A stretch of DNA of 18,422 nucleotides from a virus (lineage: Duplodnaviria > Heunggongvirae > Uroviricota > Caudoviricetes): the IMG/VR virus record IMGVR_UViG_2582580966_000018; one strand, written 5' to 3'. Under the pieces are notes generated by a model. It had not been told where the DNA came from. It saw only the letters and a program-made list of their open reading frames with translations, and ran no database searches. Position 1 is the first letter of the stretch; every line of letters starts with the position of its first letter. This document shows, one piece after another, positions 1 to 16,426 of the stretch. Both the position numbers and the translations under genes were made by a program.

Positions 1-399
1 TCACTTCAGCGGGTAGTCATCAAACTCACCAGTCCGCGCGTCATTGATGATGTACGTCACCACCCCCTTCACTACGACTCGTTCCTCACAATCGTCGTCA
101 GTTATCCATGTCTTTTTATCAGCGTGGTCCAGTTCTTCCAGGTGCACCTTTGGCAGCAGCCTGAGACGCAACAGCCGTATCTGGTCATTCAGATGACAAA
201 TCACCAGGCTTCCGTCTACCGGAGTCAGCGATGTGTCCATGACCAGCAGAGCACCTCTCTTGATTCCTTCCCGCCATGATGTAGCAGCGTAACGGATGAA
301 GAATGTCGCCGCTGGTTTTCGTATCAACTCCTTGTCGAGTGAGATCGCATCCTCGTGGTAATCAGCAGCAGGGCTGGGAAACTGTGACATGGCAACCAT
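1..399 (-). CDS. UmuD'-like protein (S24 LexA/UmuD peptidase fold), 132 aa
   Basis: Translation aligns by eye with E. coli UmuD from the FPSPAADY motif onward; the Ser of the catalytic dyad is conserved (TSW vs GDSM). GAGG Shine-Dalgarno 6 nt upstream of ATG at 399. Window starts at its stop codon, so any downstream umuC-like partner is outside the window. Confidence 0.6.
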   Translation of the reverse strand: MVAMSQFPSPAADYHEDAISLDKELIRKPAATFFIRYAATSWREGIKRGALLVMDTSLTPVDGSLVICHLNDQIRLLRLRLLPKVHLEELDHADKKTWITDDDCEERVVVKGVVTYIINDARTGEFDDYPLK

Positions 400-414
400 A
401 ACTCACCTCATTGG

Positions 415-434
415 CACTGTATGTACATACAGTA
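415..434. promoter_or_regulatory. LexA (SOS) box, CTGT-N8-ACAG palindrome
   Basis: Sequence cACTGTATGTACATACAGTa; the 18-bp core 416-433 is a perfect palindrome matching the LexA operator consensus, 16-35 nt upstream of the UmuD'-like start codon. Confidence 0.65.
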
Positions 435-444
435 CCAATGCATG

Positions 445-488
445 GATTTTGATCGTTGCAACCGATCGATTTGAAGATTTTGATCGTT
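445..488. repeat. Two perfect 13-bp direct repeats (GATTTTGATCGTT) 31 bp apart, with three GATC sites (451, 464, 482)
   Basis: Read directly: repeat copies at 445-457 and 476-488, and a CGATCG palindrome between them at 463-468. Lies in the AT-rich divergent intergenic region upstream of the 579..1865 gene. Confidence 0.8.
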
Positions 489-578
489 ATTTCCCATAAC
501 CAAATAGTGAGCAATTTTGGGACATTTATTATAAATTTAAATTGTCTTTAAATATAAATATCCAATCGGTAAATCATC

Positions 579-1865
579 GTGAAAAATAATTCCGCGCTGT
601 TTGTTGGTTCTTTTTTTGAAAGTGACCAAAGCTCAAAAGTAAACCTGGCATTATCTTATGATGGAGAACGATTCGAAAAAATAAAGGCTCAATTCCTTTG
701 GGCTATTGGTGGAACTGGAGAAGTTTTAGGGAGAGACCCATCAATTATTTATCACAACGGTTGGTGGTTAATAGCCGTATCAGGATATACAGAAAACGTT
801 TATGACGTCGATTGCTGGCGCTCACGTGATTTAACCGTGTGGGAACTGGTACGAATTAAGCTTGGCGATACGCCAGTCTGTGGGAAACGATTACCGGGTT
901 CAGATCTGGTGACCACTGACGTGTGGGCTCCTGAATGGTTTGTTGATGACGAAAATCTGTTCCTGATAGTCAGCCTGCGTTATTACAACGATCAGACTGA
1001 CAGTAAAGGTGTAAATGTCAAAAGTTTTAAAACATTCTATTCTGTCTGTTCTGATGTTGAGAGACTGGAGTTTTACGATCCGGTTGCGGTAAATATCGAA
1101 CCAAAAAACATGATTGATTCTGTTTTTTCCAGAATATTCCAGACGTATTACCTGACAATAAAAGATGAAATCACCAAAAAAATTGAGGTGTATTGTTCAA
1201 ATTGTTTCTCAGGACAGTTCACGAAATTATCAGTAATTCCGTTTACTCAGGCGGCGGAAGGCCCGGCGCTGGTTTATTTGCCGGACGGCACGATCAGAAT
1301 CTATGCGGATTTTTTCGACACAAAAAAATGGACTTATTTTGTAGACACGAAAGACTTCGTGACGTTCACGCCAGAGCGCCCCGTTTTGTTTGACGGCAGA
1401 ATTAAGCGCGGGACTATTACAAATGTGCTGAACTGGCGCGATAGTGAAACCGCATTGCAGCAACTGTCGGCGCTGTTCTGTGCAAACTCCGGGGATTTAC
1501 AGCCAGGGAAAATCCACAAGCTCATTGATGTAGCGGGAACGAGCAATATCAACGCTACTGATTTAATCTGGTGGCCTGAAACTGGACATTGTTATTTCAC
1601 CGAGGGGTTATCCGGTAACGTGACAATCAATGCGCTGCCAACTGTTTACCCGGACGGGAGTTCGTTTTATCTGATGGTCCGAAGCGCAACGCCGGGAGCT
1701 GGTGATCTGACGCTTAAACAGGCTGTCGGCGACCTGTACCACCCGGCTAATGGCATGGCGATATTTGATGCTGATTTGGTAGTGGCGGCTGGCGGGAACG
1801 CCGCATCACGTCTGTTTAGAATGGTGTGCTTTGATGGCCAGTTGTGGGTTGAGGGGGTTTTCTGA
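579..1865 (+). CDS. Hypothetical protein, 428 aa; unknown function, AT-rich cargo gene
   Basis: Long uninterrupted ORF. Only possible start is GTG at 579 (in-frame stop at 570-572 just upstream) and there is no clear Shine-Dalgarno. No motif I can assign; the many aromatic/Gly/Asp residues hint at a beta-rich, possibly carbohydrate-active fold, but that is a guess. Confidence 0.55.
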   Translation: MKNNSALFVGSFFESDQSSKVNLALSYDGERFEKIKAQFLWAIGGTGEVLGRDPSIIYHNGWWLIAVSGYTENVYDVDCWRSRDLTVWELVRIKLGDTPVCGKRLPGSDLVTTDVWAPEWFVDDENLFLIVSLRYYNDQTDSKGVNVKSFKTFYSVCSDVERLEFYDPVAVNIEPKNMIDSVFSRIFQTYYLTIKDEITKKIEVYCSNCFSGQFTKLSVIPFTQAAEGPALVYLPDGTIRIYADFFDTKKWTYFVDTKDFVTFTPERPVLFDGRIKRGTITNVLNWRDSETALQQLSALFCANSGDLQPGKIHKLIDVAGTSNINATDLIWWPETGHCYFTEGLSGNVTINALPTVYPDGSSFYLMVRSATPGAGDLTLKQAVGDLYHPANGMAIFDADLVVAAGGNAASRLFRMVCFDGQLWVEGVF

Positions 1866-1899
1866 TATAATTGTGGCTCAATGAAAATTGGGCCACATA

Positions 1900-2961
1900 A
1901 TGAACAATAAAATATTTTCCGTCCAGTATCTTCGTGGAATAGCAGCGCTACTTGTGGTGCTGTACCATTTTTCTTTTTTTACTCCGCGCTGGTTTGCTAA
2001 TTTATTTGCAAATGGCATGGTGGGCGTTGATATTTTTTTCATTATCTCTGGATTTATTATTTATTGGTCAACAATAAATCCTGAGGAATGCAGACCAACG
2101 GTATTTATTGTTAAACGATTCGCCAGAATATACCCGCTATTTTTTGTTGTGTTACTGGTTTCGTTGTTATTGCAACCTGCGCCTGCCACACAATTATCCA
2201 GGGGTTTTCTGGTTCTGCACAACGATTACACACTACCCGCTCCGGCGTTTGGATTTAATCTGCTACCGCCCGCGTGGACATTGACTTATGAAATATCGTT
2301 CTACGCTATTTTCTGTATGTGCGCTGCAATAACGACCCGGTATCGAGGTTCATTGTGTATCGCGCTGCTGATTGCAATCCCGGCAGTGCTACAGGTTGCG
2401 TTTAATGGAGGGTTGTCGTTTAACAGCACAGTCACCGCTATCCCTCCTGCTGACTCGCCGTTTTATGGTCTAATCAGGCTGGCAGGCTCAACGATGTTTT
2501 ATGAGTTTGCGTTTGGGATTATGTCTGGAATGATATTTGAAAGGTTTAAATTAATTCTTCCTAACTTAACTGCTATTACTATAGCAATATTCGCATCGGC
2601 TTTATTTTTCTATTTTTTCTTCACATTCTCAGACCATACCAGCGGTATAGAAGGAATGTTCTTTTTTGCTGCAATATTTTTTGTGGGCGTTTTGATGCTG
2701 GATAAATCAAAGGCGGGAGAGATAAAAGCATTATCAATTCTTGGCGACCTGACATATAGCATTTATCTCTGTCATTGGCTGGTAATGCAGATGGTACAGA
2801 AATTTATTCCGATTGGGGAGTATAAGCACTGGGGCGTCCTTGTCCCCTGCATGCTTGTTGCTTCTCTGATGATGGCATTCGCAGCTAACCGGATAATTGA
2901 AAAACCGTTTATCCGTCTGGCCCGTTCGGCGCTGAAACGCCAGGAGATTACGACGCGGTAG
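1900..2961 (+). CDS. Acyltransferase family 3 integral membrane protein (O-antigen/polysaccharide O-acetyltransferase-like)
   Basis: Strongly hydrophobic multi-helix protein with the N-terminal pattern typical of acyltransferase-3 / Oac-like enzymes (LRGIAALLVVLYHF...GVDIFFIISGF). ATG at 1900 preferred over the track's TTG at 1888. Sits 23 bp after the previous gene, suggesting co-transcription. Confidence 0.7.
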   Translation: MNNKIFSVQYLRGIAALLVVLYHFSFFTPRWFANLFANGMVGVDIFFIISGFIIYWSTINPEECRPTVFIVKRFARIYPLFFVVLLVSLLLQPAPATQLSRGFLVLHNDYTLPAPAFGFNLLPPAWTLTYEISFYAIFCMCAAITTRYRGSLCIALLIAIPAVLQVAFNGGLSFNSTVTAIPPADSPFYGLIRLAGSTMFYEFAFGIMSGMIFERFKLILPNLTAITIAIFASALFFYFFFTFSDHTSGIEGMFFFAAIFFVGVLMLDKSKAGEIKALSILGDLTYSIYLCHWLVMQMVQKFIPIGEYKHWGVLVPCMLVASLMMAFAANRIIEKPFIRLARSALKRQEITTR

Positions 2962-3412
2962 CAGGACGTGGCGGCCATTCAAGGCTGTCACTTAATATCG
3001 CTGCTTCATCATTAAACTTCATTTTCTTCAAGGCATCGATATGAGCAAGCCACTCTTTAAAGGTCGCCTTCTCTTCATCGGTGATGATCTCCAGAATGAG
3101 CTTAGAAGGCCAGTGTTCGCTGCTTATATATGCGTTAGCCGCAGAGATTAACGCATCTCTCTTTGACTCGGCCTGTGCCAGTTTAAGCGCGAACAGTTCT
3201 TCTTTAGTTGGCTCGGGAATTTTTTCCCACGCAGGCATGCCGTCTGGCCCTGCAACCCTTCGCATGCCGTCTTTAACTGTTGGGTAAAATTCGGCGAAAA
3301 CACCCATATCAACCGGCACAGCATCACTGTATTCGTCCGTCTTTAACAGAGAGCTTTCCTTGAAAACAAAAGCGTTGCTTTTGGCACTATATAAAAAATC
3401 TGAATCAGACAT
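2948..3412 (-). CDS. tfa: Tail fibre assembly protein (Tfa family chaperone)
   Basis: C-terminal TDEEKA...W...EWPPRP pattern and N-terminal region resemble lambda Tfa / TfaE. Start codon overlaps the stop of the upstream tail-fibre fragment (TAATG). Converges on and overlaps the acyltransferase 3' end by 14 bp. Confidence 0.75.
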   Translation of the reverse strand: MSDSDFLYSAKSNAFVFKESSLLKTDEYSDAVPVDMGVFAEFYPTVKDGMRRVAGPDGMPAWEKIPEPTKEELFALKLAQAESKRDALISAANAYISSEHWPSKLILEIITDEEKATFKEWLAHIDALKKMKFNDEAAILSDSLEWPPRPATAS

Positions 3413-3847
3413 TACGCTCTCCCGATAGCAATCCAGTTAAAAACTGTTGGCTGCGCAGTAAAGTTGTGGTCGGACGAACTCCAGGTTGCAGAACGAACAT
3501 TAAAGCTCCCTGCGTTAACCTTTTCGGCACCATACACGGTTAAGAGTTGATAGATACCGCCGGAGGCTGTCCATCCAGAGACATGGCCTTCTACTGCAAA
3601 TACCTGGTATGAGCTCATCGCCACACCCATATTCACATTATAAAATCCGTTACTGTCCGTTGTACCTACATCCATCTGGATGATCATATTGCCAGGAAGG
3701 CGAATAACCACACCAGACCCGGTTGTTGTATAGGTAAAGGATGACATATCCGGAACTTGCCCGGTAGCCGGTATAAATCACACACTCTCCGACATACACA
3801 TCATCCGGATGGGCAAACAGCTCTTGTTTGTCTGTGAGCTCTGCCAT
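3412..3847 (-). pseudogene. Side tail fibre C-terminal fragment, frameshifted near 3772-3780
   Basis: Two overlapping minus-strand ORFs (3650..3847 and 3412..3747) in different frames. Reading across the junction gives one continuous ~145-aa product (…YVGECV | IPATGQVPDMSSFTYTTTGSG…). GGAG 3 nt upstream of ATG at 3847. Positioned directly upstream of tfa, as a tail-fibre distal domain would be. Confidence 0.45.
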
Positions 3848-4204
3848 TGTTGGCTCCGTTTATCCGTTAAAAGGGATATCAGTTAAGTTATCCCGTGCAG
3901 GGTATAAGCCATTGTCGAGACCACTCATTGAATGGCCTCTGCAATAACCGATGTCTTTCCATCAGTCCGCCACAACAAAGAATCTTTTTTGCCATAAGGC
4001 AGGAGGTTCATCTTTCAGTGGCTGCCAGTGTTATTTCCCCACTTACTGGCTTGGGTTGTTTCGTGGTACTGCCGTAACTGGTTGCCAAGAATAAATTCCG
4101 GTTTCATTATCAAGCCCACCCGTAGATGGGCTTTGTAATGGATAGCCGTTGCTCAGTTCTCGTAATGCTTTGATTTTTCCGATAACGCAGTTTTGCGTTT
4201 GCCA

Positions 4205-4726
4205 TCAGCACGCGATATCGAGAGTCAACTGCAGTTGCTCGCGCCAGTACTCAACATTTGCTTCAATAACCGGCTTATCCCATCGCCAGCGAGCCATCTC
4301 TCTTGCCCCATTGCTGGCTTTTGATTTCCGGTCATCGCGAATGCGACATGCTTGCTCATATTTCTGCTGCTCAGTCAGTTCACCGCGAAGCAGACTATCA
4401 ATGTGCAGGTCGCACCACACAGCAAAACGAGCATCACACCAACGGGCAAATGCAACTGAAAGTTTTGGATGTAGCCACGTACCACCACCCCTGTCCTTTC
4501 GTGCCTTGCTGGTTTTTACATACCTCGATTGTGAGGGATGTAAAATTTGAGATTCTTTCCCGGTCAACGCTTCGTCTAAAGCACGAACGTATTCAAGCGT
4601 TTCTGCCAAACGCATCCAGTTATCAATGCGTTTTCCAAATCTCTCAGCAACACCTGTGACGTTGATCCAACCATCAGTGTTGAAACTGACAATTTCACCT
4701 TTGTAATTAAGTGGCACGATATTCAT
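4205..4726 (-). CDS. KilA-N domain protein, 173 aa
   Basis: N-terminal region (…FNTDGWINVTGVAERFGKRIDNWMRLAETLEYVRAL…) fits the KilA-N DNA-binding domain pattern. Separated from Rz by tandem terminators, so likely its own transcription unit. Confidence 0.55.
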   Translation of the reverse strand: MNIVPLNYKGEIVSFNTDGWINVTGVAERFGKRIDNWMRLAETLEYVRALDEALTGKESQILHPSQSRYVKTSKARKDRGGGTWLHPKLSVAFARWCDARFAVWCDLHIDSLLRGELTEQQKYEQACRIRDDRKSKASNGAREMARWRWDKPVIEANVEYWREQLQLTLDIAC

Positions 4727-4841
4727 AACGTTTACCTACCATTTGAAATGAACCTTTGCCGCATAGGAAACCAGCCCACCGAGGCTCGCCAGCACTAACT
4801 GGTATCCTCAAAGGCCCATTCCAAAGGGGCAGGTTCGGTGT

Positions 4842-4866
4842 AAAAAACATGCGTTGCGGTACGCAT
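4842..4866 (-). terminator. Intrinsic terminator-like hairpin (second of tandem pair after Rz)
   Basis: Minus strand reads ATGCGT-accgca-ACGCAT followed by TTTTTT. Confidence 0.5.
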
Positions 4867-4870
4867 TTAT

Positions 4871-4896
4871 TGCAAAAAGCCCCGCATCGCGAGGCT
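4871..4896 (-). terminator. Intrinsic terminator downstream of Rz/Rz1
   Basis: Minus strand reads GCCTCGC-gat-GCGGGGC (7-bp stem with one G-U pair) followed by TTTTT. Confidence 0.6.
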
Positions 4897-4927
4897 CATT
4901 AAATTGACTTTGTGATTTGCAAAAAAA

Positions 4928-5386
4928 TTATTTCAGGCATTGCGTCCTGATGTATTCCTGCAGGTAGTTAACCTGCGCGGTTATCTTGTCGATTCCACTT
5001 CGGAGACGGTAATAATTGAGTTCAGCATCTGCTGTAAGTCTTGGGCTTTCTCCATCGCCCATGCTGCTGGCTCCGGTCGTTGACTTTGCACAGGTGGCGG
5101 CGACTTGCAGGCGCTTACGACCAGCAGAAACATCAGCACGGAGACTTTCGATAGTCGCGTTAGCATCAGCAAGCTCCTTTGTATATCTGGCATCGAGTTC
5201 TGCTACATCACGTTGACGCTTCCGCATGTCAGCGATGGTGGCGTTCGCCTTCTCCAGTTCACTGGCCTTGTTATCGCGCTGCTCTTTGTAGGCGATTGCG
5301 TTATCACGGTAATGATTGACCGCCCACGACAGGCAGACGATGATGCAGATAACCAGAGCGGAGATAATCGCGGTTAACCGACTCAT
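4928..5386 (-). CDS. Rz: Rz i-spanin (inner-membrane spanin subunit)
   Basis: From the internal ATG ([30 protein letters not shown]…) the product closely resembles lambda Rz: N-terminal TM anchor then coiled-coil periplasmic domain. The longer ORF-track extension is rejected. Confidence 0.85.
4981..5166 (-). CDS. Rz1: Rz1 o-spanin lipoprotein, embedded in the +1 frame of Rz
   Basis: [27 protein letters not shown]… has a lipoprotein signal with Cys and a proline-rich mature part, nested inside Rz as in lambda. Confidence 0.7.
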
Positions 5387-5474
5387 GACATCAACACCCC
5401 AACGGCCAGAAACCACGGCCACGCATCGTTGCCATTCAATGCGAGCAACGCTGCCATGAAAAAGCAAATCATGC

Positions 5475-5978
5475 TCATTGTTGCCCCCACAAACAGACTT
5501 CACGCTCAATCTCACGACGGGTCATCAGCCCTTTCCATTGCTTACCGCCAGCGTATGTCCAGCGCCGTAGCTGATCACATGCGCCCTTGATATCGCCCTG
5601 GTTTATTTTGCGAAGAAGCGTCGATGTTCTGAAATTGCCTGTGCCCACGTTATAGACGAACGAGTAAAGAGCGCCGCGCGTTGTTTCCGGTATATCGACT
5701 TTGATGTACGGGTTAATTTGTCTGGCGACCGTGGCAAGGTCTTTATTCAGGAGGGCTTTGCATTCTGCTTCGGTATACGTTTTACCGAGCATGATGTCTT
5801 TTCCGGTGTGTCCGTGGCATACAGTCCATACACCAACAATATCTTTGTATGGTATGTAGCTGACACCTTCCAGACCATCGTTACCACTCGGTCCAGTGAT
5901 TAACACAGATGCTATAGCAATAGCCCCGCCACTTATCGCCGCTATTACGCTATTTCGTAGTGCCGGTGACATTGCCAT
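5475..5978 (-). CDS. SAR endolysin, T4-lysozyme family (GH24)
   Basis: Gly/Ala-rich N-terminal signal-anchor-release segment ([17 protein letters not shown]) followed by the canonical E-x8-D-x5-T catalytic triad ([18 protein letters not shown]). Confidence 0.9.
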
Positions 5979-6210
5979 TCAATCTGTCCTCGCGCTCTTT
6001 GCGCTTGTAGTACCAGTTGATGCCAAATGTGCCGACAGTACAAAGAATACCAATGATGACAGCCCAGTCATTCAGGGAGAGAATGCCACCCATCGCAGTC
6101 AGTCCTCCGAAGCTGTAACTGAACCATTCTCTGATTTTGTCCATAGCGCACGTTAATACCCGCTCGACGCTTTCTTTCAGGTATTGAAGGGATTGAGATG
6201 GGCTAAGCAT
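5950..6210 (-). CDS. Class II holin (pinholin-like), two TM segments, charged C-terminus
   Basis: Two hydrophobic segments then KRKEREDR tail. GGAGG 6 nt upstream of ATG at 6210; a second in-frame ATG at 6144 could give a shorter isoform. Sits immediately upstream of the SAR endolysin. Confidence 0.65.
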
Positions 6211-6544
6211 TATTGGCCTCCTGCATCAGGAGAAAGACAATCATGGCGGCGCGGAGAGGTCTGGTATCAAATATTGGGCTTACGCCTTTTGCATCCACAC
6301 ACCATTCAGTTAACTGGTCTAAGATAGAAATCCTGTATTTCTCAATAATCGGCCATGAAGCGCTCGGATCATTGCAGTAGTCAGGCAAATGATTTAATGG
6401 CTCAAAAGTTGTATAAGCATTTCCGTAATACCATTTGTTGGTGTTATTCCCTGATGTTTCCGGTTTACTTGCCCAAAGGCCTTTAAAAATTATGTCTCCT
6501 ACCATTCTGTTAATTTCAAAATCACTTAACTGTGAATAATCCAT
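6203..6544 (-). CDS. nin-region phage protein of unknown function (possibly NinX/DUF-type)
   Basis: ORF between ninE and the holin; GAGG 8 nt upstream of ATG at 6544 ([13 protein letters not shown]…). Family name is from uncertain recall. Confidence 0.5.
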
Positions 6545-6570
6545 TGTCATTTCCTCGCACGATATCTTAG

Positions 6571-6723
6571 CTACCGGATATCCCACAGGTGAGCTGTGTA
6601 ATTGAAGGTTTTTACGTCAGATTCTTTTGGGATTGGCTTGCGTTTATTTCTGGAGCGTTTCGTTGGAAGGTATTTGCAGTTTTCGCAGATGATGTCGGTG
6701 AAACTTCGTCGCTGTCGCCTCAT
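6571..6723 (-). CDS. ninE: NinE
   Basis: [23 protein letters not shown]… matches lambda NinE. AGGAGG 6 nt upstream of ATG at 6723; ATGA overlap with the stop of the methyltransferase gene. Confidence 0.75.
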
Positions 6724-7248
6724 GCCGCCCTCCTGACGCCCTGCCCGATCGCCATCAATGCCGCTTTGGATACGGTAGTAAACATCCGTCGAGGACTGAT
6801 GAACGGTCGCCAAATCAGCAGCATGGAGCCTTTGCTGTTTCCCTTCTTCTCCAGCCCTGTCGATGGTTCGATAAAATTAATCCGTCCATCAGTGATAATG
6901 CGAACTTCGTCGACACTCTCCAGAGCCTTGCTGAACCATCCGACTGACATATCCTCTGGCACAAGCATAACTACCGTCTGTCGCTGTTGTATGCACTGCT
7001 CAGCGGCTTTTTCCACCCACGGCCTGATATTGCTGTACGGTGGGTTATTCCAGATTGCACCGTGGCTTATCCACTCAGAATTTAGCGCGTCGTCGGCCTC
7101 AGTTAACCAGTGAGCGCACAGAGCATTTTTTGTCGCTCGCTGCCGAATCCAGCCAGAATCCAAACTCAATATCCAGTGCATCAAAAAGCCAAAGCGGCGT
7201 TTGCCAGCAGTCCTTGTCGTGTGCTGGCGTATTTGATTTGATAGTCAT
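6720..7248 (-). pseudogene. Phage N6-adenine DNA methyltransferase (Dam-like, NPPY motif), frameshifted in an A6 run
   Basis: N-terminal part (MTIKSNTPAHDKDCWQTPLWLFDALDIEFGFWLDSAASDK) and C-terminal part (NALCAHWLTEADD…WNNPPYS…) lie in two frames. The shift maps to the T6 run at plus 7126-7131; removing one base restores a continuous ~175-aa reading frame. ATGA overlap with ninB stop. Confidence 0.7.
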
Positions 7249-7685
7249 GCAGCCCGATCTCCCCATCGCGCTTTCCATTCGAGAGCCAGTCGCGCTTCGT
7301 CTGACCACTTAACGCCACGCTCTGTACCGAATGCCTGTATAAGCTCTAATAGCTCCGCAAATTCGTTTACACGCATCCTGCTGGTTGACTGGCCTATTAC
7401 CACAAAGCCATTCCCGGCAAGGTTAGGAACAACATCCTGCTGCTTTAATGCTGCGGTAAACACACACTTCCAGCTTTCTGCATCCAGCCAGCGACCATGC
7501 CATTCAACCTGACGAGAGACGTCACCAAGGCAAGCCCAAAGCTTTCGATTCTGGTCTAAGCTGCGGTTGCGTTCCTGAATGGTTACTACGATTGGTTTGG
7601 TTGGGTCTGGAAGAATTTGCTGTACCGCGTGAATAGCGTTTTGCTGATGTGCTGGAGATCGAATTTCAAAGGTTAGTTTTTTCAT
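7245..7685 (-). CDS. ninB: NinB recombination protein
   Basis: From MKKLTFEIRSPAHQQNAIHAVQQILPDPTKP… the product is near-identical to lambda NinB as I recall it. Confidence 0.9.
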   Translation of the reverse strand: MKKLTFEIRSPAHQQNAIHAVQQILPDPTKPIVVTIQERNRSLDQNRKLWACLGDVSRQVEWHGRWLDAESWKCVFTAALKQQDVVPNLAGNGFVVIGQSTSRMRVNEFAELLELIQAFGTERGVKWSDEARLALEWKARWGDRAA

Positions 7686-7701
7686 GACTTCCCTCTCCCC
7701 C

Positions 7702-7733
7702 AAATAAAAAGGCCTGCGATTACCAGCAGGCCT
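7702..7733 (-). terminator. tR2-like intrinsic terminator between ren and ninB
   Basis: Minus strand reads AGGCCTGC-tggtaatc-GCAGGCCT followed by TTTTATTT. Confidence 0.7.
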
Positions 7734-7758
7734 GTTATTAGCTCAGTGATGTAGATGG

Positions 7759-8049
7759 TCATCTTTTAACTCCATATACTGCCAATACCCGTTTCATCGC
7801 GGCACTCTGGCGACACTCCTTAAAAATCAGGTTCGTGCTCATCTTTCCTTCCCGTTCTTCCCTGGTAGCAAATCGGTAATACACCGTTCGCCAGACCTTA
7901 CCTTCGATAACCAGAAGACCTGCCCGTGCCATTTTAGCCGCGGCCTGATTTATGCTGGTTACTGTTGCGCCTGTTAGCGCGGCAACGTCCGGCGCACAGA
8001 AGCTATTATGCGTCCCCAGGTAATGAATAATTGCCTCTTTGCCCGTCAT
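7759..8049 (-). CDS. ren: Ren
   Basis: 96-aa product matches lambda Ren; ATGA overlap with P stop. Confidence 0.9.
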   Translation of the reverse strand: MTGKEAIIHYLGTHNSFCAPDVAALTGATVTSINQAAAKMARAGLLVIEGKVWRTVYYRFATREEREGKMSTNLIFKECRQSAAMKRVLAVYGVKR

Positions 8050-8747
8050 ACACTTGCTCCTTTCAGTCCGAACTTAGCTTTGATTTCTGCGATCTTCGCC
8101 AGAGCCTGTGCACGATTTAGAGGTCTACCGCCCATGACAGGAAGTTGTTTTACTGGTTCAGGGATCGCCTCACCACGGTTAATTCTCGCAGTCATATGGA
8201 CAAGCTCATCTGCGGCCTTACGGCGTAATTCCGCATCAGTAAGCGCATTGGCCCGCATGTTCTGATACAGGTTGGTAACCAGCCAGTAGTGCGCGTTTGA
8301 TTTCCACGGATAAGACTCCGCATCCGGATACAGGCCTCGCTTCCGGCAATACTCGTAAACCATATCAACCAGCTCGCTGACGTTTGGCAGTCCGGCGGTA
8401 ACGGATGCTTCTTCCCGGCACCATGCAACAAACTGCCCGGGTGATGGCAGAAATGGTCGATTCTGCCGACGGGCTACGCGCATTCCTGCGTTAACCTGTT
8501 CCATCGTGGTGATCCCGTTTTCCCGAAAAGCCAGAACCCACTGGCGACGGATTTCGTTCACTTCGTTCTGGTCACGGTTAGCCAGGCTCGCCGGGAAAGT
8601 TGCCAGTAACTGGCTGAACACACCGTTGATGATCTGCGCTACCTGCTGTACCTGCGGCTTTTCGTCGTACTGTTCCGGCATGTTGTTGGCGATCCGACGC
8701 ATCTGCTCACGGTCAAAGTTAACCATCTGTGCGGCGATGTTTTTCAT
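8046..8747 (-). CDS. P: Replication protein P (DnaB helicase loader)
   Basis: 233-aa product matches lambda P (MKNIAAQMVNFDREQMRRIANNMPEQYDEKPQV…). Confidence 0.95.
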   Translation of the reverse strand: MKNIAAQMVNFDREQMRRIANNMPEQYDEKPQVQQVAQIINGVFSQLLATFPASLANRDQNEVNEIRRQWVLAFRENGITTMEQVNAGMRVARRQNRPFLPSPGQFVAWCREEASVTAGLPNVSELVDMVYEYCRKRGLYPDAESYPWKSNAHYWLVTNLYQNMRANALTDAELRRKAADELVHMTARINRGEAIPEPVKQLPVMGGRPLNRAQALAKIAEIKAKFGLKGASV

Positions 8748-9643
8748 AGATCCACCCCGTAAATCCAGTCTGTGTTTGTCAGGTCGAGTTTTGGTTTGCT
8801 GGCTGTCATGCCTGCCTGTTGCTTGTTACGGTTGATTTCGAGTTGGGTCCACTTATCGCGGAGTTTGGCCGGGCTCAGCACGTTACCGGACCAGAAGTTG
8901 TCCTGGCATGCCCAGCGGAACAGCACGCACATGTCACGGTGGTTACGTCCGTCACGTTCACGCATCAGGCGGATATCGTTAGCCCACCCAGCAAAATTCG
9001 GTTTTCTGGCTGATGGTGCGATAGTCTTCACCATGTCAAACATCCACTCTGCGGCGGTCAGGTCTTCTGCTGTCCCCCACTTGCTGCCGCTCTGAATTGC
9101 AGCATCCGGTTTCACCACAGAAAGGTCGTTTTCTGGCTGGTCAGAGGATTCGCCAGAATTCTCTGACGAATAATCTTTTCTTTTTTCTTTTGTAATAGTG
9201 TCTTTTGTGTCCCCCTGTTTTGAGGGATAGCAATCCCCCAATTTGAGGGATGTTTTATCCCTCGTTTTAGGGGATTTTCCCTCGTTTTGAGGGATGCACC
9301 ATTCTGAGATGTTTTTATTTGGTCCAAACATGCCGCCTTGCTGCTTGATAATATTCATTCTGACGAGTTCTAACTTGGCTTCATTGCACCGTTTGACGGG
9401 TAACTTTGTAATCTCGCTAAGTTGAGAATCGGTGATTCTGTCCATTGGTTTATTCCACCCATAGGTTTTACGCAGAATGGCAAGCAGCACTTTAAACTGT
9501 CGCTTGGTCAGATCTGCGCCCGAATAAGCCTCAAGCAGCATATTTGATAGTCTGGCGTAACCATCATCGAGATCTGCCACATTACGCTCCTGTCCGGCAA
9601 AGTTACCTCTGCCGAAGTTGAGTATTTTTGCTGTATTTGTCAT
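8744..9643 (-). CDS. O: Replication initiator O
   Basis: 299-aa product matches lambda O; contains the ori iterons and the EcoRI site (GAATTC at 9157-9162) internally. Confidence 0.95.
   Translation of the reverse strand: MTNTAKILNFGRGNFAGQERNVADLDDGYARLSNMLLEAYSGADLTKRQFKVLLAILRKTYGWNKPMDRITDSQLSEITKLPVKRCNEAKLELVRMNIIKQQGGMFGPNKNISEWCIPQNEGKSPKTRDKTSLKLGDCYPSKQGDTKDTITKEKRKDYSSENSGESSDQPENDLSVVKPDAAIQSGSKWGTAEDLTAAEWMFDMVKTIAPSARKPNFAGWANDIRLMRERDGRNHRDMCVLFRWACQDNFWSGNVLSPAKLRDKWTQLEINRNKQQAGMTASKPKLDLTNTDWIYGVDL
9170..9293. repeat. ori-lambda: four iterons (about 9210-9293) plus adjacent AT-rich unwinding region (about 9170-9209) inside O
   Basis: Repeated TCCCTCAAAACGAGGGA-type units on the minus strand (plus: …ccctgttttgaggga…ccctcgttttagggga…ccctcgttttgaggga) next to an A/T-rich stretch, as in lambda ori. 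Confidence 0.9.
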
Positions 9644-9653
9644 AATGACTCCT

Positions 9654-9730
9654 GTTGATAGATCCAGTAATGACCTCAGAACTCCATCTGGATTTGTTCA
9701 GAACGCTCGGTTGCCGCCGGGCGTTTTTTA
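9654..9730 (+). ncRNA. oop: oop antisense RNA (antisense to the cII 3' end)
   Basis: Plus strand GTTGATAGATCCAGTAATGACC…GCCGCCGGGCGTTTTTTATT matches the lambda OOP RNA as I recall it, ending in a GC-rich hairpin plus U tract. Confidence 0.65.
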
Positions 9731-9969
9731 TTGGTGAGAATCGCAGCAACTTGTCGCGCCAATCGAGCCATGTCGTCGTCAACGACCCCCCATTCAAGAA
9801 CAGCAAGCAGCATTGAGAACTTTGGAATCCAGTCCCTCTTCCACCTGCTGATCTGCGACTTATCAACGCCCACAGCTTCCGCTGTCTTCTCAGTTCCAAG
9901 CATTGCGATTTTGTTAAGCAACGCACTCTCGATTCGTAGAGCCTCGTTGCGTTTGTTTGCACGAACCAT
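9676..9969 (-). CDS. cII: Transcriptional activator CII
   Basis: MVRANKRNEALRIESALLNKIAMLGTEKTAEAVGVDKSQISRWKRDWIPKFSMLLAVLEWGVVDDDMARLARQVAAILTNKKRPAATERSEQIQMEF matches lambda CII. Preceded by AAGGAAATACTTACAT-ATG as in lambda. The ORF-track N-terminal extension is rejected. Confidence 0.95.
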   Translation of the reverse strand: MVRANKRNEALRIESALLNKIAMLGTEKTAEAVGVDKSQISRWKRDWIPKFSMLLAVLEWGVVDDDMARLARQVAAILTNKKRPAATERSEQIQMEF

Positions 9970-10048
9970 ATGTAAGTATTTCCTTAGATAACAATTGATT
10001 GAATGTATGCAAATAAATGCATACACCATAGGTGTGGTTTAATTTGAT

Positions 10049-10080
10049 GCCCTTTTTCAGGGCTGGGATGTGTAAGAGCG
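10049..10080 (-). promoter_or_regulatory. nutR (boxA CGCTCTTACA, boxB GCCCTGAAAAAGGGC) upstream of tR1
   Basis: boxB at plus 10049-10063 and boxA (reverse complement) at 10071-10080, between cro and cII. Confidence 0.8.
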
Positions 10081-10088
10081 GGAATGTC

Positions 10089-11444
<1,356 letters not shown>

Positions 11445-11494
11445 TCCCCACCTCAATCTCGATAACCAAAAAACAAACTATTTTCCGTTTAAAA

Positions 11495-11563
11495 ACAATG
11501 GAGTTTGTTTTTCATGCCCCTTTCTTACAATATTTCTTGTTTACAACATACAATCTTTTTTGT
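11495..11563. promoter_or_regulatory. OL operator region with pL: three 434-type 14-bp sites
   Basis: ACAATGGAGTTTGT (11495-11508), ACAATATTTCTTGT (11527-11540), ACAATCTTTTTTGT (11550-11563), followed by the lambda-like pL transcript start sequence ATCAGCAGGACGCACTGACC near 11575. Confidence 0.8.
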
Positions 11564-11608
11564 AATTTTAAACCATCAGCAGGACGCACTGACCACCATT
11601 GAAGGTGA

Positions 11609-11639
11609 TGCTCTTAAAAATTAAGCCCTGAAGAAGGGC
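11609..11639 (+). promoter_or_regulatory. nutL (boxA GCTCTTAAAAATTAA, boxB GCCCTGAAGAAGGGC)
   Basis: Matches lambda nutL as recalled; lies in the pL leader upstream of N. Confidence 0.85.
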
Positions 11640-11797
11640 AGCATTCAAAGCAGAAGGCTTTGGGGTGTGTGATACGAAACGAAGCATTGGCCGGAAGTGC
11701 GAATCCGGATTAGCTGCAAATGAGCCAATCGTGGGGTGTTTTCGTTCAGGACTACGACTCACACACACCACCAAAGCTAACTGACAAGAGAATCCAG

Positions 11798-12121
11798 ATG
11801 GATGCACAAACACGCCGCCGCGAACGTCGCGCAGAGAAACAGGCTCAATGGAAAGCAGCAAATCCCCTGTTGGTTGGGGTAAGCGCAAAACCAGTTAACC
11901 GCCCTATTCTCTCGCTGAATCGCAAACCGAAATCACGAGTAGAAAGCGCACTGAATCCGATAGACCTTACGGTGCTGGCTGAATACCACGAACAGATTGA
12001 AAGCAACCTGCAACGTATTGAGCGCAAGAATCTTCGAGTTTGGTATAGCAAGCCAAGTGAGTTCGGTATAACTTGTCAAGGAAGACAAAAGGTTAAAGGG
12101 AAATCCATTCCATTGGCATGA
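11798..12121 (+). CDS. N: Antitermination protein N
   Basis: MDAQTRRRERRAEKQAQWKAANPLLVGVSAKPVNRPILSLNRKPKSRVESALNPIDLTVLAEYH… matches lambda N with a few substitutions; includes the arginine-rich boxB-binding motif. The ORF-track upstream extension is rejected. Confidence 0.9.
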   Translation: MDAQTRRRERRAEKQAQWKAANPLLVGVSAKPVNRPILSLNRKPKSRVESALNPIDLTVLAEYHEQIESNLQRIERKNLRVWYSKPSEFGITCQGRQKVKGKSIPLA

Positions 12122-12129
12122 GGTACGTA

Positions 12130-12210
12130 ATGAAGAAAATTGATTACAAGTCCATACCAAAACCAATAGACTCAGCATCAGAGCGAAAAAAAACACAAAA
12201 AAGAGGCTGA
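12130..12210 (+). CDS. Possible small basic peptide, 26 aa (MKKIDYKSIPKPIDSASERKKTQKRG)
   Basis: ATG 6 nt after a GAGG that sits right at the N stop codon. Not in the ORF track because it is under 60 aa. Could be non-coding. Confidence 0.25.
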   Translation: MKKIDYKSIPKPIDSASERKKTQKRG

Positions 12211-12319
12211 AAAATTAGCAAATTATATCAGTTTTATTAGAAACAATGCTCACGGCGATGGCGACAGGAAGTTGCTTTCAGATGCCCGGACCCAAGCGTT
12301 CAGCATACTTCGTAAGCAG

Positions 12320-13000
12320 ATGCAATATCGTCTTCATCCAGGCTACATAATTGAAATTCGCCCGACTGAAAGACAATTGTTCTTATTAAACTCTGTCTTT
12401 GACTTTGTAAACGTAGTTGGAGATCTTATCGACAGGTCTGTAGATAAGGCTCCTGATACAAATAGTTTTCTTCTAACAAATAAAGAATACTTATATGGTA
12501 AATTTGGTATAAACGGATGGCAAAAATATGTACGATTCTTACGTGCATTCGTTGATGCGAATAAAAATTCCGACATGATTTATACATATTTGCCTGGTGG
12601 TAATAATTGTACGCTTTCGGCAGACAATAGAATATTCATACCTATACTTGGTCTTGGGCTGATTAATGCAGTAAATGAAAGAGATGTTATAATTGTTAAG
12701 CAGTGGCGAAAGCATGAGGGATATAGATATCTGCCATGCTTTGATATATTAAAAATACAGAATAAATTCTATGTAAAAATTAAATATAAAGAAGATGTTT
12801 TCTTCCTCAGAAAAAACAAAGATCTTTTACAAGAACTTTCTGGGACAATAGATGTCATCGTAGGTTCTAGGTTTATAAAAGAACTGAAAGAAAGCAGGTC
12901 TTTCTCTCGTGTAGAGATAAGCGAGTCAGAGTTATGGGGTATATCAAATAATCCTGTAAACCACGCTCACCAACGAAATCCAAACAAAAAGTGGTCATAA
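12320..13000 (+). CDS. Hypothetical protein, 226 aa (242 aa if the TTG at 12272 is used); AT-rich accessory gene in the sieB/ral position
   Basis: Long ORF in visibly AT-rich DNA between N and ea10. No TM segments or motifs I recognise. Start is uncertain. Followed directly by an intrinsic terminator. Confidence 0.55.
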   Translation: MQYRLHPGYIIEIRPTERQLFLLNSVFDFVNVVGDLIDRSVDKAPDTNSFLLTNKEYLYGKFGINGWQKYVRFLRAFVDANKNSDMIYTYLPGGNNCTLSADNRIFIPILGLGLINAVNERDVIIVKQWRKHEGYRYLPCFDILKIQNKFYVKIKYKEDVFFLRKNKDLLQELSGTIDVIVGSRFIKELKESRSFSRVEISESELWGISNNPVNHAHQRNPNKKWS

Positions 13001-13024
13001 CCCGCTCAGGCGGGTTTCATTTTC
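13000..13024 (+). terminator. Intrinsic terminator after the accessory gene
   Basis: aCCCGC-tcag-GCGGGt followed by TTCATTTTC. Confidence 0.6.
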
Positions 13025-13142
13025 ACGCAAACAACAGAATAAACACTGCACTGTGTATTCATTCCAACGAGTGAATACACGGAGCAATGTCGCTCGTAAC
13101 TAAACAGGAGTCGACTTGTTCTGATTATTGGAAATCTTCTTT

Positions 13143-13172
13143 GCCCTCCAGTGTGAGGGCGATTTTTTATCT
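13143..13172 (+). terminator. Intrinsic terminator upstream of ea10
   Basis: GCCCTC-cagtgt-GAGGGC followed by GATTTTTTATCT. Confidence 0.6.
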
Positions 13173-13188
13173 GTGAGGATATGAACAG

Positions 13189-13557
13189 ATGTCAAACATC
13201 AAAAAATACATCATTGATTACGACTGGAAAGCATCAATAGAAATTGAAATCGACCATGACGTAATGACAGAGGAAAAACTTCACCAGATTAATAATTTCT
13301 GGTCAGACTCTGAATACCGACTCAATAAACACGGCTCTGTATTAAATGCTGTATTAATCATGCTGGCGCAACATGCTCTGCTTATAGCAATTTCAAGCGA
13401 CTTAAATGCATATGGTGTTGTGTGTGAGTTCGACTGGAATGATGGAAATGGTCAGGAAGGATGGCCTCCAATGGATGGTAGCGAAGGAATAAGAATTACC
13501 GATATCGATACATCAGGAATATTTGATCCAGATGATATGACTATCAAAGCCGCCTGA
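13189..13557 (+). CDS. ea10: Ea10 (lambda early protein, 122 aa)
   Basis: Length and sequence consistent with lambda Ea10 as recalled; GAGGA Shine-Dalgarno upstream; position between the sieB/ral slot and cIII. Confidence 0.75.
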   Translation: MSNIKKYIIDYDWKASIEIEIDHDVMTEEKLHQINNFWSDSEYRLNKHGSVLNAVLIMLAQHALLIAISSDLNAYGVVCEFDWNDGNGQEGWPPMDGSEGIRITDIDTSGIFDPDDMTIKAA

Positions 13558-13629
13558 GCGCGGCGTTACCGCATACCAATAACGCTTCACTCGAGGCGTT
13601 TTTCGTTATGTATAAATAAGGAGCACACC

Positions 13630-13794
13630 ATGCAATATGCCATTGCAGGGTGGCCTGTTGCTGGCTGCCCTTCCGAATCTTTACTTGAACGAATCACCCG
13701 TAAATTACGTGACGGATGGAAACGCCTTATCGACATACTTAATCAGCCAGGAGTCCCAAAAAATGGATCAAACACTTATGGCTATCCAGACTAA
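13630..13794 (+). CDS. cIII: CIII (FtsH inhibitor), 54 aa
   Basis: [54 protein letters not shown] matches lambda CIII. AAGGAG upstream. Missing from the ORF track because it is under 60 aa. Confidence 0.9.
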   Translation: MQYAIAGWPVAGCPSESLLERITRKLRDGWKRLIDILNQPGVPKNGSNTYGYPD

Positions 13795-13927
13795 ATTCAC
13801 TATCGCCACTTTTATTGGCGATGAAAAGATGTTTCGTGAGGCCGTCGACGCTTATAAAAAATGGATATTAATACTGAAACTGAGATCAAGCAAAAGCATT
13901 CACTACCCCCCTTCCCTGTTTTCCTAA
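13763..13927 (+). CDS. kil: Kil (host-killing/FtsZ inhibitor), 54 aa here
   Basis: [34 protein letters not shown]… overlaps the cIII 3' end and the gam 5' end, as lambda kil does. Confidence 0.7.
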
Positions 13928-14277
13928 TCAGCCCGGCATTTCGCGGACGATATTTTCACAGCTATTTCAGGAGTTCAGCCATGAACGCTTATTACATTCA
14001 GGATCGTCTTGAGGCTCAGAGCTGGGCGCGTCACTACCAGCAGATCGCCCGTGAAGAGAAAGAGGCAGAACTGGCAGACGACATGGAAAAAGGCCTGCCC
14101 CAGCACCTGTTTGAATCGCTATGCATCGATCATTTGCAACGCCACGGGGCCAGCAAAAAAGCCATTACCCGTGCGTTTGATGACGATGTTGAGTTTCAGG
14201 AGCGCATGGCAGAACACATCCGGTACATGGTTGAAACCATTGCTCACCATCAGGTTGATATTGATTCAGAGGTATAA
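13861..14277 (+). CDS. gam: Gam (RecBCD inhibitor), long form
   Basis: 138-aa product matches lambda Gam; internal [21 protein letters not shown] start of the short form is present. Confidence 0.9.
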
Positions 14278-14282
14278 AACGG

Positions 14283-15068
14283 ATGAGTACAGCACTCGCA
14301 ACGCTGGCAGGGAAGCTGGCTGAACGTGTCGGCATGGATTCTGTCGACCCACAGGAACTGATCACCACTCTTCGCCAGACGGCATTTAAAGGTGATGCCA
14401 GCGATGCGCAGTTCATCGCATTGTTGATCGTCGCCAACCAGTACGGCCTTAATCCGTGGACGAAAGAAATTTACGCCTTCCCTGATAAGCAGAACGGCAT
14501 CGTTCCGGTGGTGGGCGTTGATGGCTGGTCCCGTATCATCAATGAAAACCAGCAGTTTGATGGCATGGACTTTGAGCAGGACAATGAATCCTGCACATGC
14601 CGGATTTACCGCAAGGACCGTAATCATCCGATCTGCGTTACCGAGTGGATGGATGAATGCCGCCGCGAACCATTCAAAACCCGCGAAGGCAGAGAAATCA
14701 CGGGGCCGTGGCAGTCGCATCCCAAACGGATGTTGCGTCATAAAGCCATGATTCAGTGTGCCCGTCTGGCCTTCGGATTTGCTGGTATCTATGACAAGGA
14801 TGAAGCCGAGCGCATTGTCGAAAATACCGCATACACTGCAGAACGTCAGCCGGAACGCGACATCACTCCGGTTAACGATGAAACCATGCAGGAGATTAAC
14901 ACTCTGCTGATTGCCCTGGATAAAACATGGGATGACGACTTATTGCCGCTCTGTTCCCAGATATTTCGCCGCGACATTCGCGCATCGTCAGAACTGACAC
15001 AGGCCGAAGCAGTGAAAGCTCTTGGATTCCTGAAACAGAAAGCCTCTGAGCAGAAGGTGGCTGCATGA
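14283..15068 (+). CDS. bet: Bet (Red-beta single-strand annealing protein)
   Basis: 261-aa product matches lambda Bet. Confidence 0.95.
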
Positions 15069-15745
15069 CACCGGACATTATCCTGCAGCGTACCGGGATC
15101 GACGTGAGAGCTGTCGAACAGGGAGATGATGCGTGGAACAAATTACGACTCGGCGTCATCACGGCTTCAGAAGTTCACAATGTGATAGCAAAACCCCGCT
15201 CCGGTAAAAAGTGGCCTGACATGAAAATGTCCTACTTTCACACCCTGCTGGCTGAGATTTGTACCGGTGTGGCTCCGGAAGTTAACGCTAAGGCGCTGGC
15301 CTGGGGAAAAAAGTACGAGAATGACGCCAGAGCCCTGTTTGAGTTTACTTCCGGCGTGAATGTTACTGAATCCCCGATCATCTATCGCGACGAAAGTATG
15401 CGCACCGCCTGCTCTCCCGATGGTTTATGCAGTGACGGCAACGGCCTTGAGCTGAAATGCCCGTTTACCTCCCGGGATTTCATGAAGTTCCGGCTCGGTG
15501 GTTTCGAGGCCATAAAGTCGGCTTACATGGCCCAGGTGCAGTACAGCATGTGGGTGACGCGAAAAGATGCCTGGTACTTTGCCAACTATGACCCACGAAT
15601 GAAGCGTGAAGGCCTGCATTATGTCGTGGTTGAGCGGGATGAAAATTACATGGCGAGTTTTGACGAGATGGTGCCGGAGTTCATCGAAAAAATGGACGAG
15701 GCACTGGCTGAAATTGGTTTTGTATTTGGGGAGCAATGGCGATGA
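15065..15745 (+). CDS. exo: Exo (Red-alpha 5'-3' exonuclease)
   Basis: 226-aa product matches lambda Exo with synonymous differences (the lambda EcoRI site in exo is absent here: GAGTTT instead of GAATTC at about 15341-15346). Confidence 0.95.
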
Positions 15746-15924
15746 CGCATCCTCACGATAATATCCGGGTAGGCGCGATCACTTTCGTCTACTCCGTTAC
15801 AAAGCGAGGCTGGGTATTTCCCGGCCTTTCTGTTACCCGAAATCCCCTGAAAGCACAGCGGCTGGCTGAGGAGATAAATAATAAACGGGGAGCTGTATGC
15901 ACAAAGCATCTCCTGTTGAGTTAA
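15736..15924 (+). CDS. Lambda orf60a-like small protein
   Basis: Position immediately after exo and sequence consistent with lambda orf60a as recalled. Confidence 0.6.
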
Positions 15925-16088
15925 GAACGAGCATTGAGATGGCACATAGCCTCGCTCAAATTGGAGTCAGGTTTGTGCCAATACCGGTAGAAACAGACGA
16001 AGAATTTCATACGTTAGCCGCATCCCTTTCACAAAAGCTGGAAATGATGGTGGCGAAAGCAGAAGCAGATGAGAGAGACCAGGTATGA
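15897..16088 (+). CDS. Lambda orf63-like small protein
   Basis: Position and sequence consistent with lambda orf63. Confidence 0.65.
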   Translation: MHKASPVELRTSIEMAHSLAQIGVRFVPIPVETDEEFHTLAASLSQKLEMMVAKAEADERDQV

Positions 16089-16168
16089 CAACCACTGAAT
16101 GCATTTTTCTGGCAGCGGGCTTCATATTCTGTGTGCTTATGCTTGCCGACATGGGACTTGTTCAATGA
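16085..16168 (+). CDS. Possible 27-aa hydrophobic peptide (MTTTECIFLAAGFIFCVLMLADMGLVQ)
   Basis: ATG overlaps the orf63 stop (ATGA) and its TGA overlaps the next gene's ATG (ATGA): coupled on both sides. One predicted TM helix. Not in the ORF track (under 60 aa). Confidence 0.3.
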   Translation: MTTTECIFLAAGFIFCVLMLADMGLVQ

Positions 16169-16380
16169 CACCTCAGCAAGAAAACGCCCTTCGCAGTATT
16201 GCCCGTCAGGCTAATTCTGAAATCAAAAAAGCCAGACAGCAGTTTCCGGATAAAAACGTCGATGACATTTGCCGTAGCGTACTGAAGAAGCACCGCGAAA
16301 CGGTAACGCTGATGGGATTCACACCGACTCATTTAAGCCTGGCGATCGGCATGTTAAACGGCGTCTTTAAGGAACGGTGA
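16165..16380 (+). CDS. Lambda orf61-like small protein
   Basis: MTPQQENALRSIARQANSEIKKARQQFPDKNVDD…; position consistent with lambda orf61. The ORF-track upstream extension is rejected in favour of the coupled ATG. Confidence 0.6.
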   Translation: MTPQQENALRSIARQANSEIKKARQQFPDKNVDDICRSVLKKHRETVTLMGFTPTHLSLAIGMLNGVFKER

Positions 16381-16402
16381 GCATGAAAAACAAAATCATC
16401 AT

Positions 16403-16426
16403 GGAGCTACAGGCTCCTTTTTTATT
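16403..16426 (+). terminator. Intrinsic terminator-like hairpin after orf61
   Basis: GGAGC-tacag-GCTCC followed by TTTTTTATT. Confidence 0.5.

Follow-up and report, generated by a model that had tools for sequence, protein, structure and literature searches.

A defective lambdoid prophage in sbcB of Escherichia coli, very probably formed by a deletion that joined an HNH endonuclease gene to a tail fiber gene

What became of the packaging, head, and tail genes of a lambdoid prophage in which a KilA-N domain gene is followed, within a few hundred base pairs, by a piece of a tail fiber gene and its chaperone gene tfa, and where exactly were they cut out? The window (the whole 18,422-nucleotide stretch of DNA analyzed here) contains such an arrangement. 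Very probably a single deletion of ∼19.8 kb between an HNH endonuclease gene and a fiber gene, followed later by a second deletion of 2,509 bp, gave rise to a defective prophage of ∼19.9 kb in sbcB that carries a fiber fragment, most likely inert.

The prophage remnant

The window is lambdoid prophage sequence, read on the minus strand. Early, replication, nin, and lysis DNA of phages 434 and λ is ∼97% identical to positions 5117–18181, the match covering 62% of the window, and genes typed by Pfam as cI, cro, cII, O, P, Nin, holin, lysozyme, and Rz are all present. E. coli contig JMGU01000058.1, whose fiber-fragment ORF is assigned to strain 2-011-08_S3_C2 by NCBI, matches the window at 100% identity, and the window makes up the larger part of an element of ∼19.9 kb at the 5′ end of sbcB, a known integration site of lambdoid phages (PMC8309913). 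Within the 5′ end of sbcB the element is framed by a 13-bp direct repeat (TTTCACGATTACG), the att core being ∼86 bp past window position 1, and a gene for a 392-aa integrase adjoins sbcB at the far end; repeat and integrase gene lie beyond the window and were read in loci L025 and L042 (L numbers denote the loci that were compared). A Dam-like methylase gene is split by a 1-nt frameshift.

Beside the fiber fragment and tfa, no terminase, portal, capsid, head, or tail gene was found in the window or in the whole ∼19.9-kb remnant on the source contig. The original prediction that the morphogenesis module is absent between the KilA-N gene and the fiber fragment thus holds, and structural genes elsewhere in some unusual order, which that prediction had named as the finding that would count against it, were not found across the same span. 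Homology to lambdoid phages, att repeats with an integrase, and virion genes that are missing by comparison with colinear complete relatives together mark the element as a cryptic prophage. The features of the region are collected in Table 1.

Table 1. Features of the window around the deletion junction and in the retained arms
Feature	Position	Strand	Basis or remark
Orphan UmuD-like gene	1–399	minus	Pfam/PHROG
Retained right arm of the prophage	1–2961	none	Shared, identical or nearly so, by intact prophages whose tail modules are of two kinds
GH43-like protein, 428 aa	579–1865	plus	Pfam/PHROG
acyltransferase_3	1888–2961	plus	Pfam/PHROG; 14-bp overlap with the 3′ end of tfa
tfa, tail fiber assembly chaperone, 154 aa, intact	2948–3412	minus	Pfam Caudo_TAP E = 2.4e-14; PHROG 188 E = 2e-28
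Tail fiber C-terminal 117 codons and stop	3412–3766	minus	0–1 mismatches to the fiber genes of L010, L004, and L013
Chimeric ORF, 65 aa	3650–3847	minus	28 HNH codons and 37 out-of-frame codons across the fiber fragment
HNH endonuclease 5′ stub, 28 codons (MAELTDKQELFAHPDDVYVGECVIYTGY)	3764–3847	minus	Matches the HNH genes of E308 and C3728
Deletion junction	3764–3766	none	GTA (TAC on the coding strand), common to both parents
Native spacer, 357 bp	3848–4204	none	97–99% identity of 3839–4300 to intact phages
KilA-N domain gene, 173 aa	4205–4726	minus	Pfam KilA-N E = 8.2e-22; 77.5 bits (cut-off 23.8)
Rz	4928–5386		
Lysozyme	5475–5978		
Holin	5950–6210		

The deletion junction

On the lysis side of the break, the stub listed in Table 1 corresponds to the opening 84 nt of the HNH gene in E. 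coli E308 (L002, 3587–4084) and in C3728 (L014, 9722–10219), and this homology ends at 3764. The intact HNH gene of both strains encodes 165 aa and is followed by terS and TerL. Its HNH_3 motif (PF13392) occupies residues 44–92 of the intact homolog and is therefore lost from the window, which keeps residues 1–28 only; judged by its sequence, the HNH remainder is a pseudogene stub. On the other side, the retained fiber sequence shows 100% identity to the final 117 codons of the full-length fiber gene (243 aa) of intact prophages.

The break was mapped base by base by aligning the window with the HNH parent (L002) and with seven intact fiber loci. On the coding strand, with the slash marking the break, the HNH parent reads ...TATACCGGCTAC/ATAAAT, the fiber parent ...GGCACCGGTAC/CGGGCAAG, and the window ...TATACCGGCTAC/CGGGCAAG, so that with both parental sequence types compared the breakpoint is resolved to 3 nt. 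Around it lies an imperfect match of 8 out of 9 positions with one indel, ACCGGCTAC in the HNH gene and ACCGGTAC in the fiber gene, and the similarity at the two break sites can be written ACCGG(C)TAC; neither a perfect match of 3 nt nor one of 8/9 with an indel is statistically distinctive. The break sits inside the ORF that starts at 3847, and it fuses the HNH stub to the fiber sequence out of frame, so neither the HNH nor the fiber gene should yield a functional product. A site-specific or homing-endonuclease-driven deletion was considered and dropped, the sole hint of one being the coincidence that one of the breaks lies in an HNH gene.

Complete relatives and the origin of the deletion

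The gene order of the complete prophage in E. coli C3728 is Rz, Rha, HNH, terS, TerL, portal, head genes, sheath and tube genes of a contractile tail, baseplate genes, a Gp53-like fiber gene, and tfa. The two microhomology motifs occur in this prophage at a separation of 19,844 bp, a distance that is read from a relative integrated elsewhere (at argW) and that agrees with the earlier estimate of roughly 20 kb for the missing DNA. The HNH 5′ end and upstream spacer of C3728 are 97.8% identical to window positions 3764–4085.

The intact prophages that carry the exact Tfa protein adjoin dacD-sbmC-yeeA and were read over the 10 kb upstream of tfa, a span in which no early region or HNH gene was seen. 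Their fiber gene encodes either 227 aa at the end of a Mu-like contractile tail module or 243 aa at the end of an E217/PhiTE-like module, and the fragment in the window derives from this 227/243-aa myovirus-type fiber. One of them, L010, shares 97.5% identity in its tail and baseplate module with the complete C3728 prophage. Across positions 1–3766, the window has no mismatch to the intact L010, one each to L004 and L013, and 6–21 to the Mu-type prophages. The lost tail was, then, contractile and of the myovirus type with a short Gp53-like fiber, and the λ Stf-type fiber that had been assumed from the gene arrangement gives way to it.

The history that best accounts for these observations would start from a parent phage with a λ/434-type early and lysis region, then KilA-N, HNH, terS, TerL, portal, and head genes, followed by a contractile tail and baseplate, a short Gp53-like fiber, tfa, and an arm of converting genes. 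One illegitimate recombination would have joined HNH codon 28 to fiber codon 126/127 and removed the intervening ∼19.8 kb, likely through replication slippage or RecA-independent break repair at the microhomology. At 6144/6145 the window also shows the second deletion, in which the late promoter region, the genes from ninF to Q, and the initial three codons of the holin gene were lost. The stretch from ninF to Q is still present in part of the lineage and missing from the window and others, from which it follows that the morphogenesis deletion came first; the later loss would have silenced the late operon.

An alternative, which appears unlikely, is that the junction was formed by illegitimate recombination between two phage genomes and that no deletion took place within a prophage; an incoming or tandem λ/434-like phage could, for example, have recombined with a resident myovirus-tailed sbcB prophage so that the left part of the resident was replaced. 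The right arm is joined to two unrelated tail modules in the intact prophages, which indicates module exchange at this locus, and no intact parent was found whose Rz or HNH allele is exactly that of the window. Look-ups with Rz and with a 242-aa protein returned deletion-allele contigs only, an IMG/VR exact-match scan for the window's HNH 5′ allele returned three contigs, all of the deletion allele, those with KilA-N and with a 114-aa early protein returned thousands of unrelated contigs, and a homolog search with the reconstructed HNH protein gave no full-length E. coli entry that could be used for a look-up. As the exact undeleted parent was not found, recombination between phages is kept as a minor alternative. 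It is opposed by the coexistence of a lambdoid early region, HNH, terminase, and a myovirus-type tail in single genomes such as that of the C3728 prophage, by the presence in the remnant of one integrase and one pair of att repeats, and by the fact that a simple deletion requires one event. The deletion within a single prophage is therefore the preferred explanation.

The fiber fragment and tfa

Three types of fiber differ in their N-terminal parts, share a conserved linker (...LSRKNPFGDIKSDGTV.TALENLGLG.AAK.D.GTGTGQ.PD), and then diverge again. The junction falls at GTG/TGQVPD in the fiber protein, that is, in this linker, and what the window retains is consequently the complete variable C-terminal domain; the N-terminal half, which anchors the fiber to the baseplate, is gone. 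The fragment aligns with the full Pfam profile Gp53-like_C (PF21882, positions 1–84) at E = 0.039 and 14.9 bits, below the cut-off of 24.9, and all four of its homologs match that profile (best E = 5e-4). It also matches a PHROG tail fiber family (E = 6e-5), and hhalign pairs it at 96% probability with the C3728 fiber, a bona fide Gp53-like protein. An AlphaFold2 model built on the four-sequence alignment was too poor to use (pLDDT 42). Homologs of the domain are found as swappable cassettes. In Citrobacter braakii one is an N-terminally incomplete cassette with its own Tfa beside a serine invertase, and a second stands at the end of a Mu-like tail, with Tfa and a convergent acyltransferase after it. 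ORFs of 91, 99, 74, and 72 aa annotated for the fragment were considered as possible decay mutations; they are differences in gene calling, as the DNA is identical in the loci compared.

The tfa gene is intact (Caudo_TAP score 54 bits, cut-off 22.1). Its start overlaps the fiber stop codon (TAATG), and its ribosome-binding site, read directly from the sequence, is good. The exact protein occurs on 64 contigs, and in intact prophages its gene directly follows a full-length fiber gene.

Could the fragment and tfa still serve as a receptor-binding module, as had been proposed? Five codons upstream of the break the fiber frame contains a stop, so translation could restart only at the internal ATG at 3747, which opens an ORF of 111 aa (3412–3747) and has a poor Shine-Dalgarno sequence. 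No promoter-like site was found on the minus strand in 2900–5000, and there is a terminator-like hairpin between Rz and KilA-N. With the N-terminal half missing, the fusion out of frame, no promoter-like site, and Q deleted, the proposal finds no support. Because Q and the late promoter region are deleted, the fiber fragment and tfa are most likely silent leftovers. The fragment is most likely inert where it lies, and by analogy its sole plausible activity would be as donor DNA for the exchange of fiber domains with incoming phages. Its persistence together with tfa would most likely reflect a recent event and the overlap of tfa with the 3′ end of the convergent acyltransferase gene, itself probably kept as a surface-modification gene of use to the host.

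That the fiber domain and Tfa form a selected, expressed module, for instance a receptor-blocking anti-phage factor, is highly improbable. The idea draws on the fact that the fragment comprises precisely the variable Gp53-like domain, in full, from the end of the conserved linker, on the intact tfa with its good ribosome-binding site, and on the lack of mutations in fragment and tfa across the deletion-lineage loci compared, where the one exception is a tfa substitution in L041 (window position 3046). There is also a precedent in StfE2, a chimeric fiber of the cryptic prophage e14 that blocks adsorption of T2 (PMC12529663). The scarcity of mutations is uninformative, however, since the whole arm is 100% identical to that of an intact prophage, which marks the event as too recent and leaves the comparison no power to test selection. 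The poor start site, the absence of a promoter-like site on this strand, and the deletion of Q together with the late promoter region argue against expression, and a PADLOC search of the neighboring unknown genes gave nothing except a weak match for KilA-N. Very unlikely as well is the possibility that the Gp53-like domain and its chaperone are expressed at a low level from the ATG at 3747 as a receptor-masking superinfection-exclusion factor comparable to StfE2, or are maintained as a donor cassette that incoming phages take up to alter their host range. The fragment and tfa are accordingly best regarded as probable leftovers of the deletion.

The KilA-N gene and the spacer

The KilA-N gene is the last intact late-region gene ahead of the deletion. 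The exact protein is present in 12,336 blocks of the collection, and in all ten of the loci listed it has Rz on one side and, on the other, the packaging genes of λ-like or P22-like phages. Between it and the HNH stub there are 357 bp in which no convincing ORF and no match to an Rfam family was found. The gap between the KilA-N gene and the fiber fragment that was first described is real as far as its length and lack of a convincing ORF are concerned, but its far neighbor is the HNH stub, and the fiber sequence ends at 3766; given that 3764–3847 is the HNH 5′ end, the gap separates KilA-N from the HNH stub just as it does in intact phages. Positions 3839–4300 are colinear with the sequence that follows KilA-N in E. 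coli A2, HK544, mEp234, HK140, and P22-like phages of Salmonella, and also in HK97-like and other lambdoid phages, and the next gene of those intact genomes begins where the window has the ATG at 3847. By this comparison the spacer is native sequence downstream of KilA-N and not the scar of a deletion.

The deletion had originally been placed within this gap, and it was suggested that cos or structural-gene remnants be sought there; none was found in 3848–4204, and comparison with intact relatives moves the break to 3764–3766. That the junction nevertheless lies in the gap, with the entire ORF from 3847 onward being tail fiber, would explain why a stretch without a convincing gene stands between the last recognizable lysis-region gene and fiber-like sequence, but it is almost certainly wrong, as 3839–4300 is colinear with and 97–99% identical to intact phages, 3764–3847 is the HNH 5′ end, and fiber identity begins only at 3766.

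Lineage and assembly

The same junction is present in at least ∼17 independent E. coli assemblies, among them the complete chromosome CP170296.1 (closed, 4.84 Mb), several NCBI drafts, and ENA, Logan, and IMG/VR contigs. Independent contigs with the chimeric ORF number 16; the 111-aa ORF and the lineage-specific Rz were each found on 17 contigs. An assembly artifact in which two prophage regions were wrongly joined through a repeat, a concern raised at the outset, can be set aside with near certainty: prophage repeats do confuse some assemblies (in draft GCA_000704585.1 several contigs join the remnant to different right-hand flanks), but the junction is identical in independent assemblies including the closed chromosome, and the 3–9 nt common to the two sides are far too few to mislead an assembler.

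Comparison with known prophages

This locus is a clean, base-resolved case of virion-gene loss in which a deletion at the level of microhomology came first and the deletion of Q second, leaving the immunity, Red recombination, and putative surface-modification genes intact after both. Its importance beyond correct annotation is small. Its proper description is a defective sbcB prophage that has an HNH pseudogene stub, a truncated fiber pseudogene, and an intact tfa; the ORFs of 65 and 111 aa should not be entered as hypothetical proteins.

Several known elements share parts of this arrangement. The Stx-type prophages in sbcB of E. coli O157 occupy the same attachment locus (PMC8309913), but the window has no stx genes. 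The C3728 prophage resembles the window in its HNH 5′ end, in the spacer, and in the conserved fiber linker; it differs in being complete, in lying at argW/intS, in having Rha in place of KilA-N, and in its fiber C-terminal domain and tfa. In the invertible cassettes of Mu (G), P1 (C), and e14 (P), the unit that is swapped is the same as that retained in the window. In contrast to those cassettes, the genes on the opposite strand of the window are the acyltransferase and GH43-like genes, and there is no inverted alternative fiber cassette. An invertible segment of the Gin/Cin/Pin type, like Mu G, was thus rejected; no resolvase-type gene is present in the window or in the flanks that were read, and the window has no inverted repeats of useful length, the longest being short matches at the level of chance.

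The closest parallels are Rac, Qin, and DLP12 of E. coli K-12, which are likewise lambdoid and have lost virion morphogenesis genes by internal deletion while keeping immunity, recombination, and lysis genes. Sequences of stf/tfa persist in Rac and Qin, and λ can still recombine with them (PMC3945230); among incomplete prophages in general, packaging genes are preferentially lost and tail fiber genes are enriched (PMC7744054). The window differs from these three in its position at sbcB, in the contractile, myovirus-type tail that it lost, with a short Gp53-like fiber and no λ-type Stf, in having no adjacent Pin invertase, and in its breaks, which lie in an HNH gene, now a stub, and in the fiber linker. 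The element is an ordinary decayed E. coli cryptic prophage, a new instance of the familiar pattern of Rac, Qin, and DLP12.

Fibre gene mosaicism and the adjoining cassette

Each short fibre gene is a mosaic of three parts: an N-terminus specific to the tail type, a conserved ∼40 amino acid linker and a C-terminal domain that can be exchanged. The genes lie at bp 9270–10,001 in L010, an intact prophage that carries the window's right arm, at 9318–10,001 in L008, and at 29,270–29,983 in L014, the complete E. coli C3728 prophage at argW. Homology among E. coli fibres breaks off where the linker ends (about bp 9611–9656 in L010), and the endpoint of the window's deletion falls in those same few dozen bases.

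Beyond tfa, and in the opposite orientation to the late genes, is a two-gene cassette (see table for coordinates) that encodes a 428 amino acid GH43-like protein, whose match to a PHROG "tail protein" is weak, and an acyltransferase_3, O-acetyltransferase-like protein. Next to dacD, one and the same fibre-tfa-acyltransferase arm is found with either of two unrelated tail modules, one Mu-like and the other E217/PhiTE-like, and another contig with a Mu-like tail (L053) has a related arrangement of fibre, Tfa and convergent acyltransferase_3 genes. The role of the cassette may be lysogenic conversion, as a surface-modification module tied to the specificity of the fibre.

Coordinates of selected features in the window
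Feature	Position	Strand	Remarks
Orphan UmuD-like gene	1–399	minus	prophage end, ∼86 bp from att core
Near-perfect palindrome CATTGGCACTGTATGTACATACAGTACCAATG	409–440		just upstream of UmuD-like gene
Two-gene cassette	579–2961	plus	low GC (35–46%)
Dam-like N6-adenine methylase gene	6720–7308	minus	split in two ORFs by 1-nt indel
242-aa ORF	12,272–13,000	plus	32–37% GC island, between N and DUF2528/cIII genes

Second deletion and methylase frameshift

A second deletion junction, with a 2 nt microhomology (TA), is present at 6144–6145, where a 2509 bp block is absent relative to sister contigs L005, L041, L044 and L047. The lost block contains ninF, ybcO, rusA, ninH, the Q antiterminator gene and the late promoter region, and it extends over the first three codons of the holin gene; a 5′-truncated holin gene now directly follows ninX. 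The frameshift in the Dam-like methylase gene lies near 7125–7150; related prophages have an intact 175-codon gene.

Insertion in sbcB

The prophage is inserted at the 5′ end of sbcB (L025, bp 17,492–17,540; L042, about bp 15,690–15,720), and these sites lie outside the window, at about −98 (L025) and about +19,796 (L042) in window coordinates. The native sbcB start (MMNDGKQQSTFLFHDY) is stranded beside dacD, and the phage contributes a substitute N-terminus (MTGTDKQPTFLFHDY...), so sbcB probably remains intact. In draft assembly GCA_000704585.1 the same remnant occurs on several contigs (L026, L027, L028, L043, L045 and L046). The flank to the right of it differs among them: dsdC/dsdX-like genes, a lambda-type int adjoining a pectinesterase gene, or another integrase. 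Such variation suggests that the assembly is chimeric or mixes strains, which makes it unsuitable for inferring the integration site.

Accessory genes

The UmuD-like gene has no umuC partner. The palindrome upstream of it includes a LexA-box-like motif (CTGT-N8-ACAG). The 242 amino acid ORF product has no match in Pfam or PADLOC. A search for the exact protein located it on only eight contigs, and every one of these that is long enough to reach the HNH stub-fibre junction carries the deletion allele. In lambdoid phages, the position of this ORF is a common site of exclusion or defence genes.
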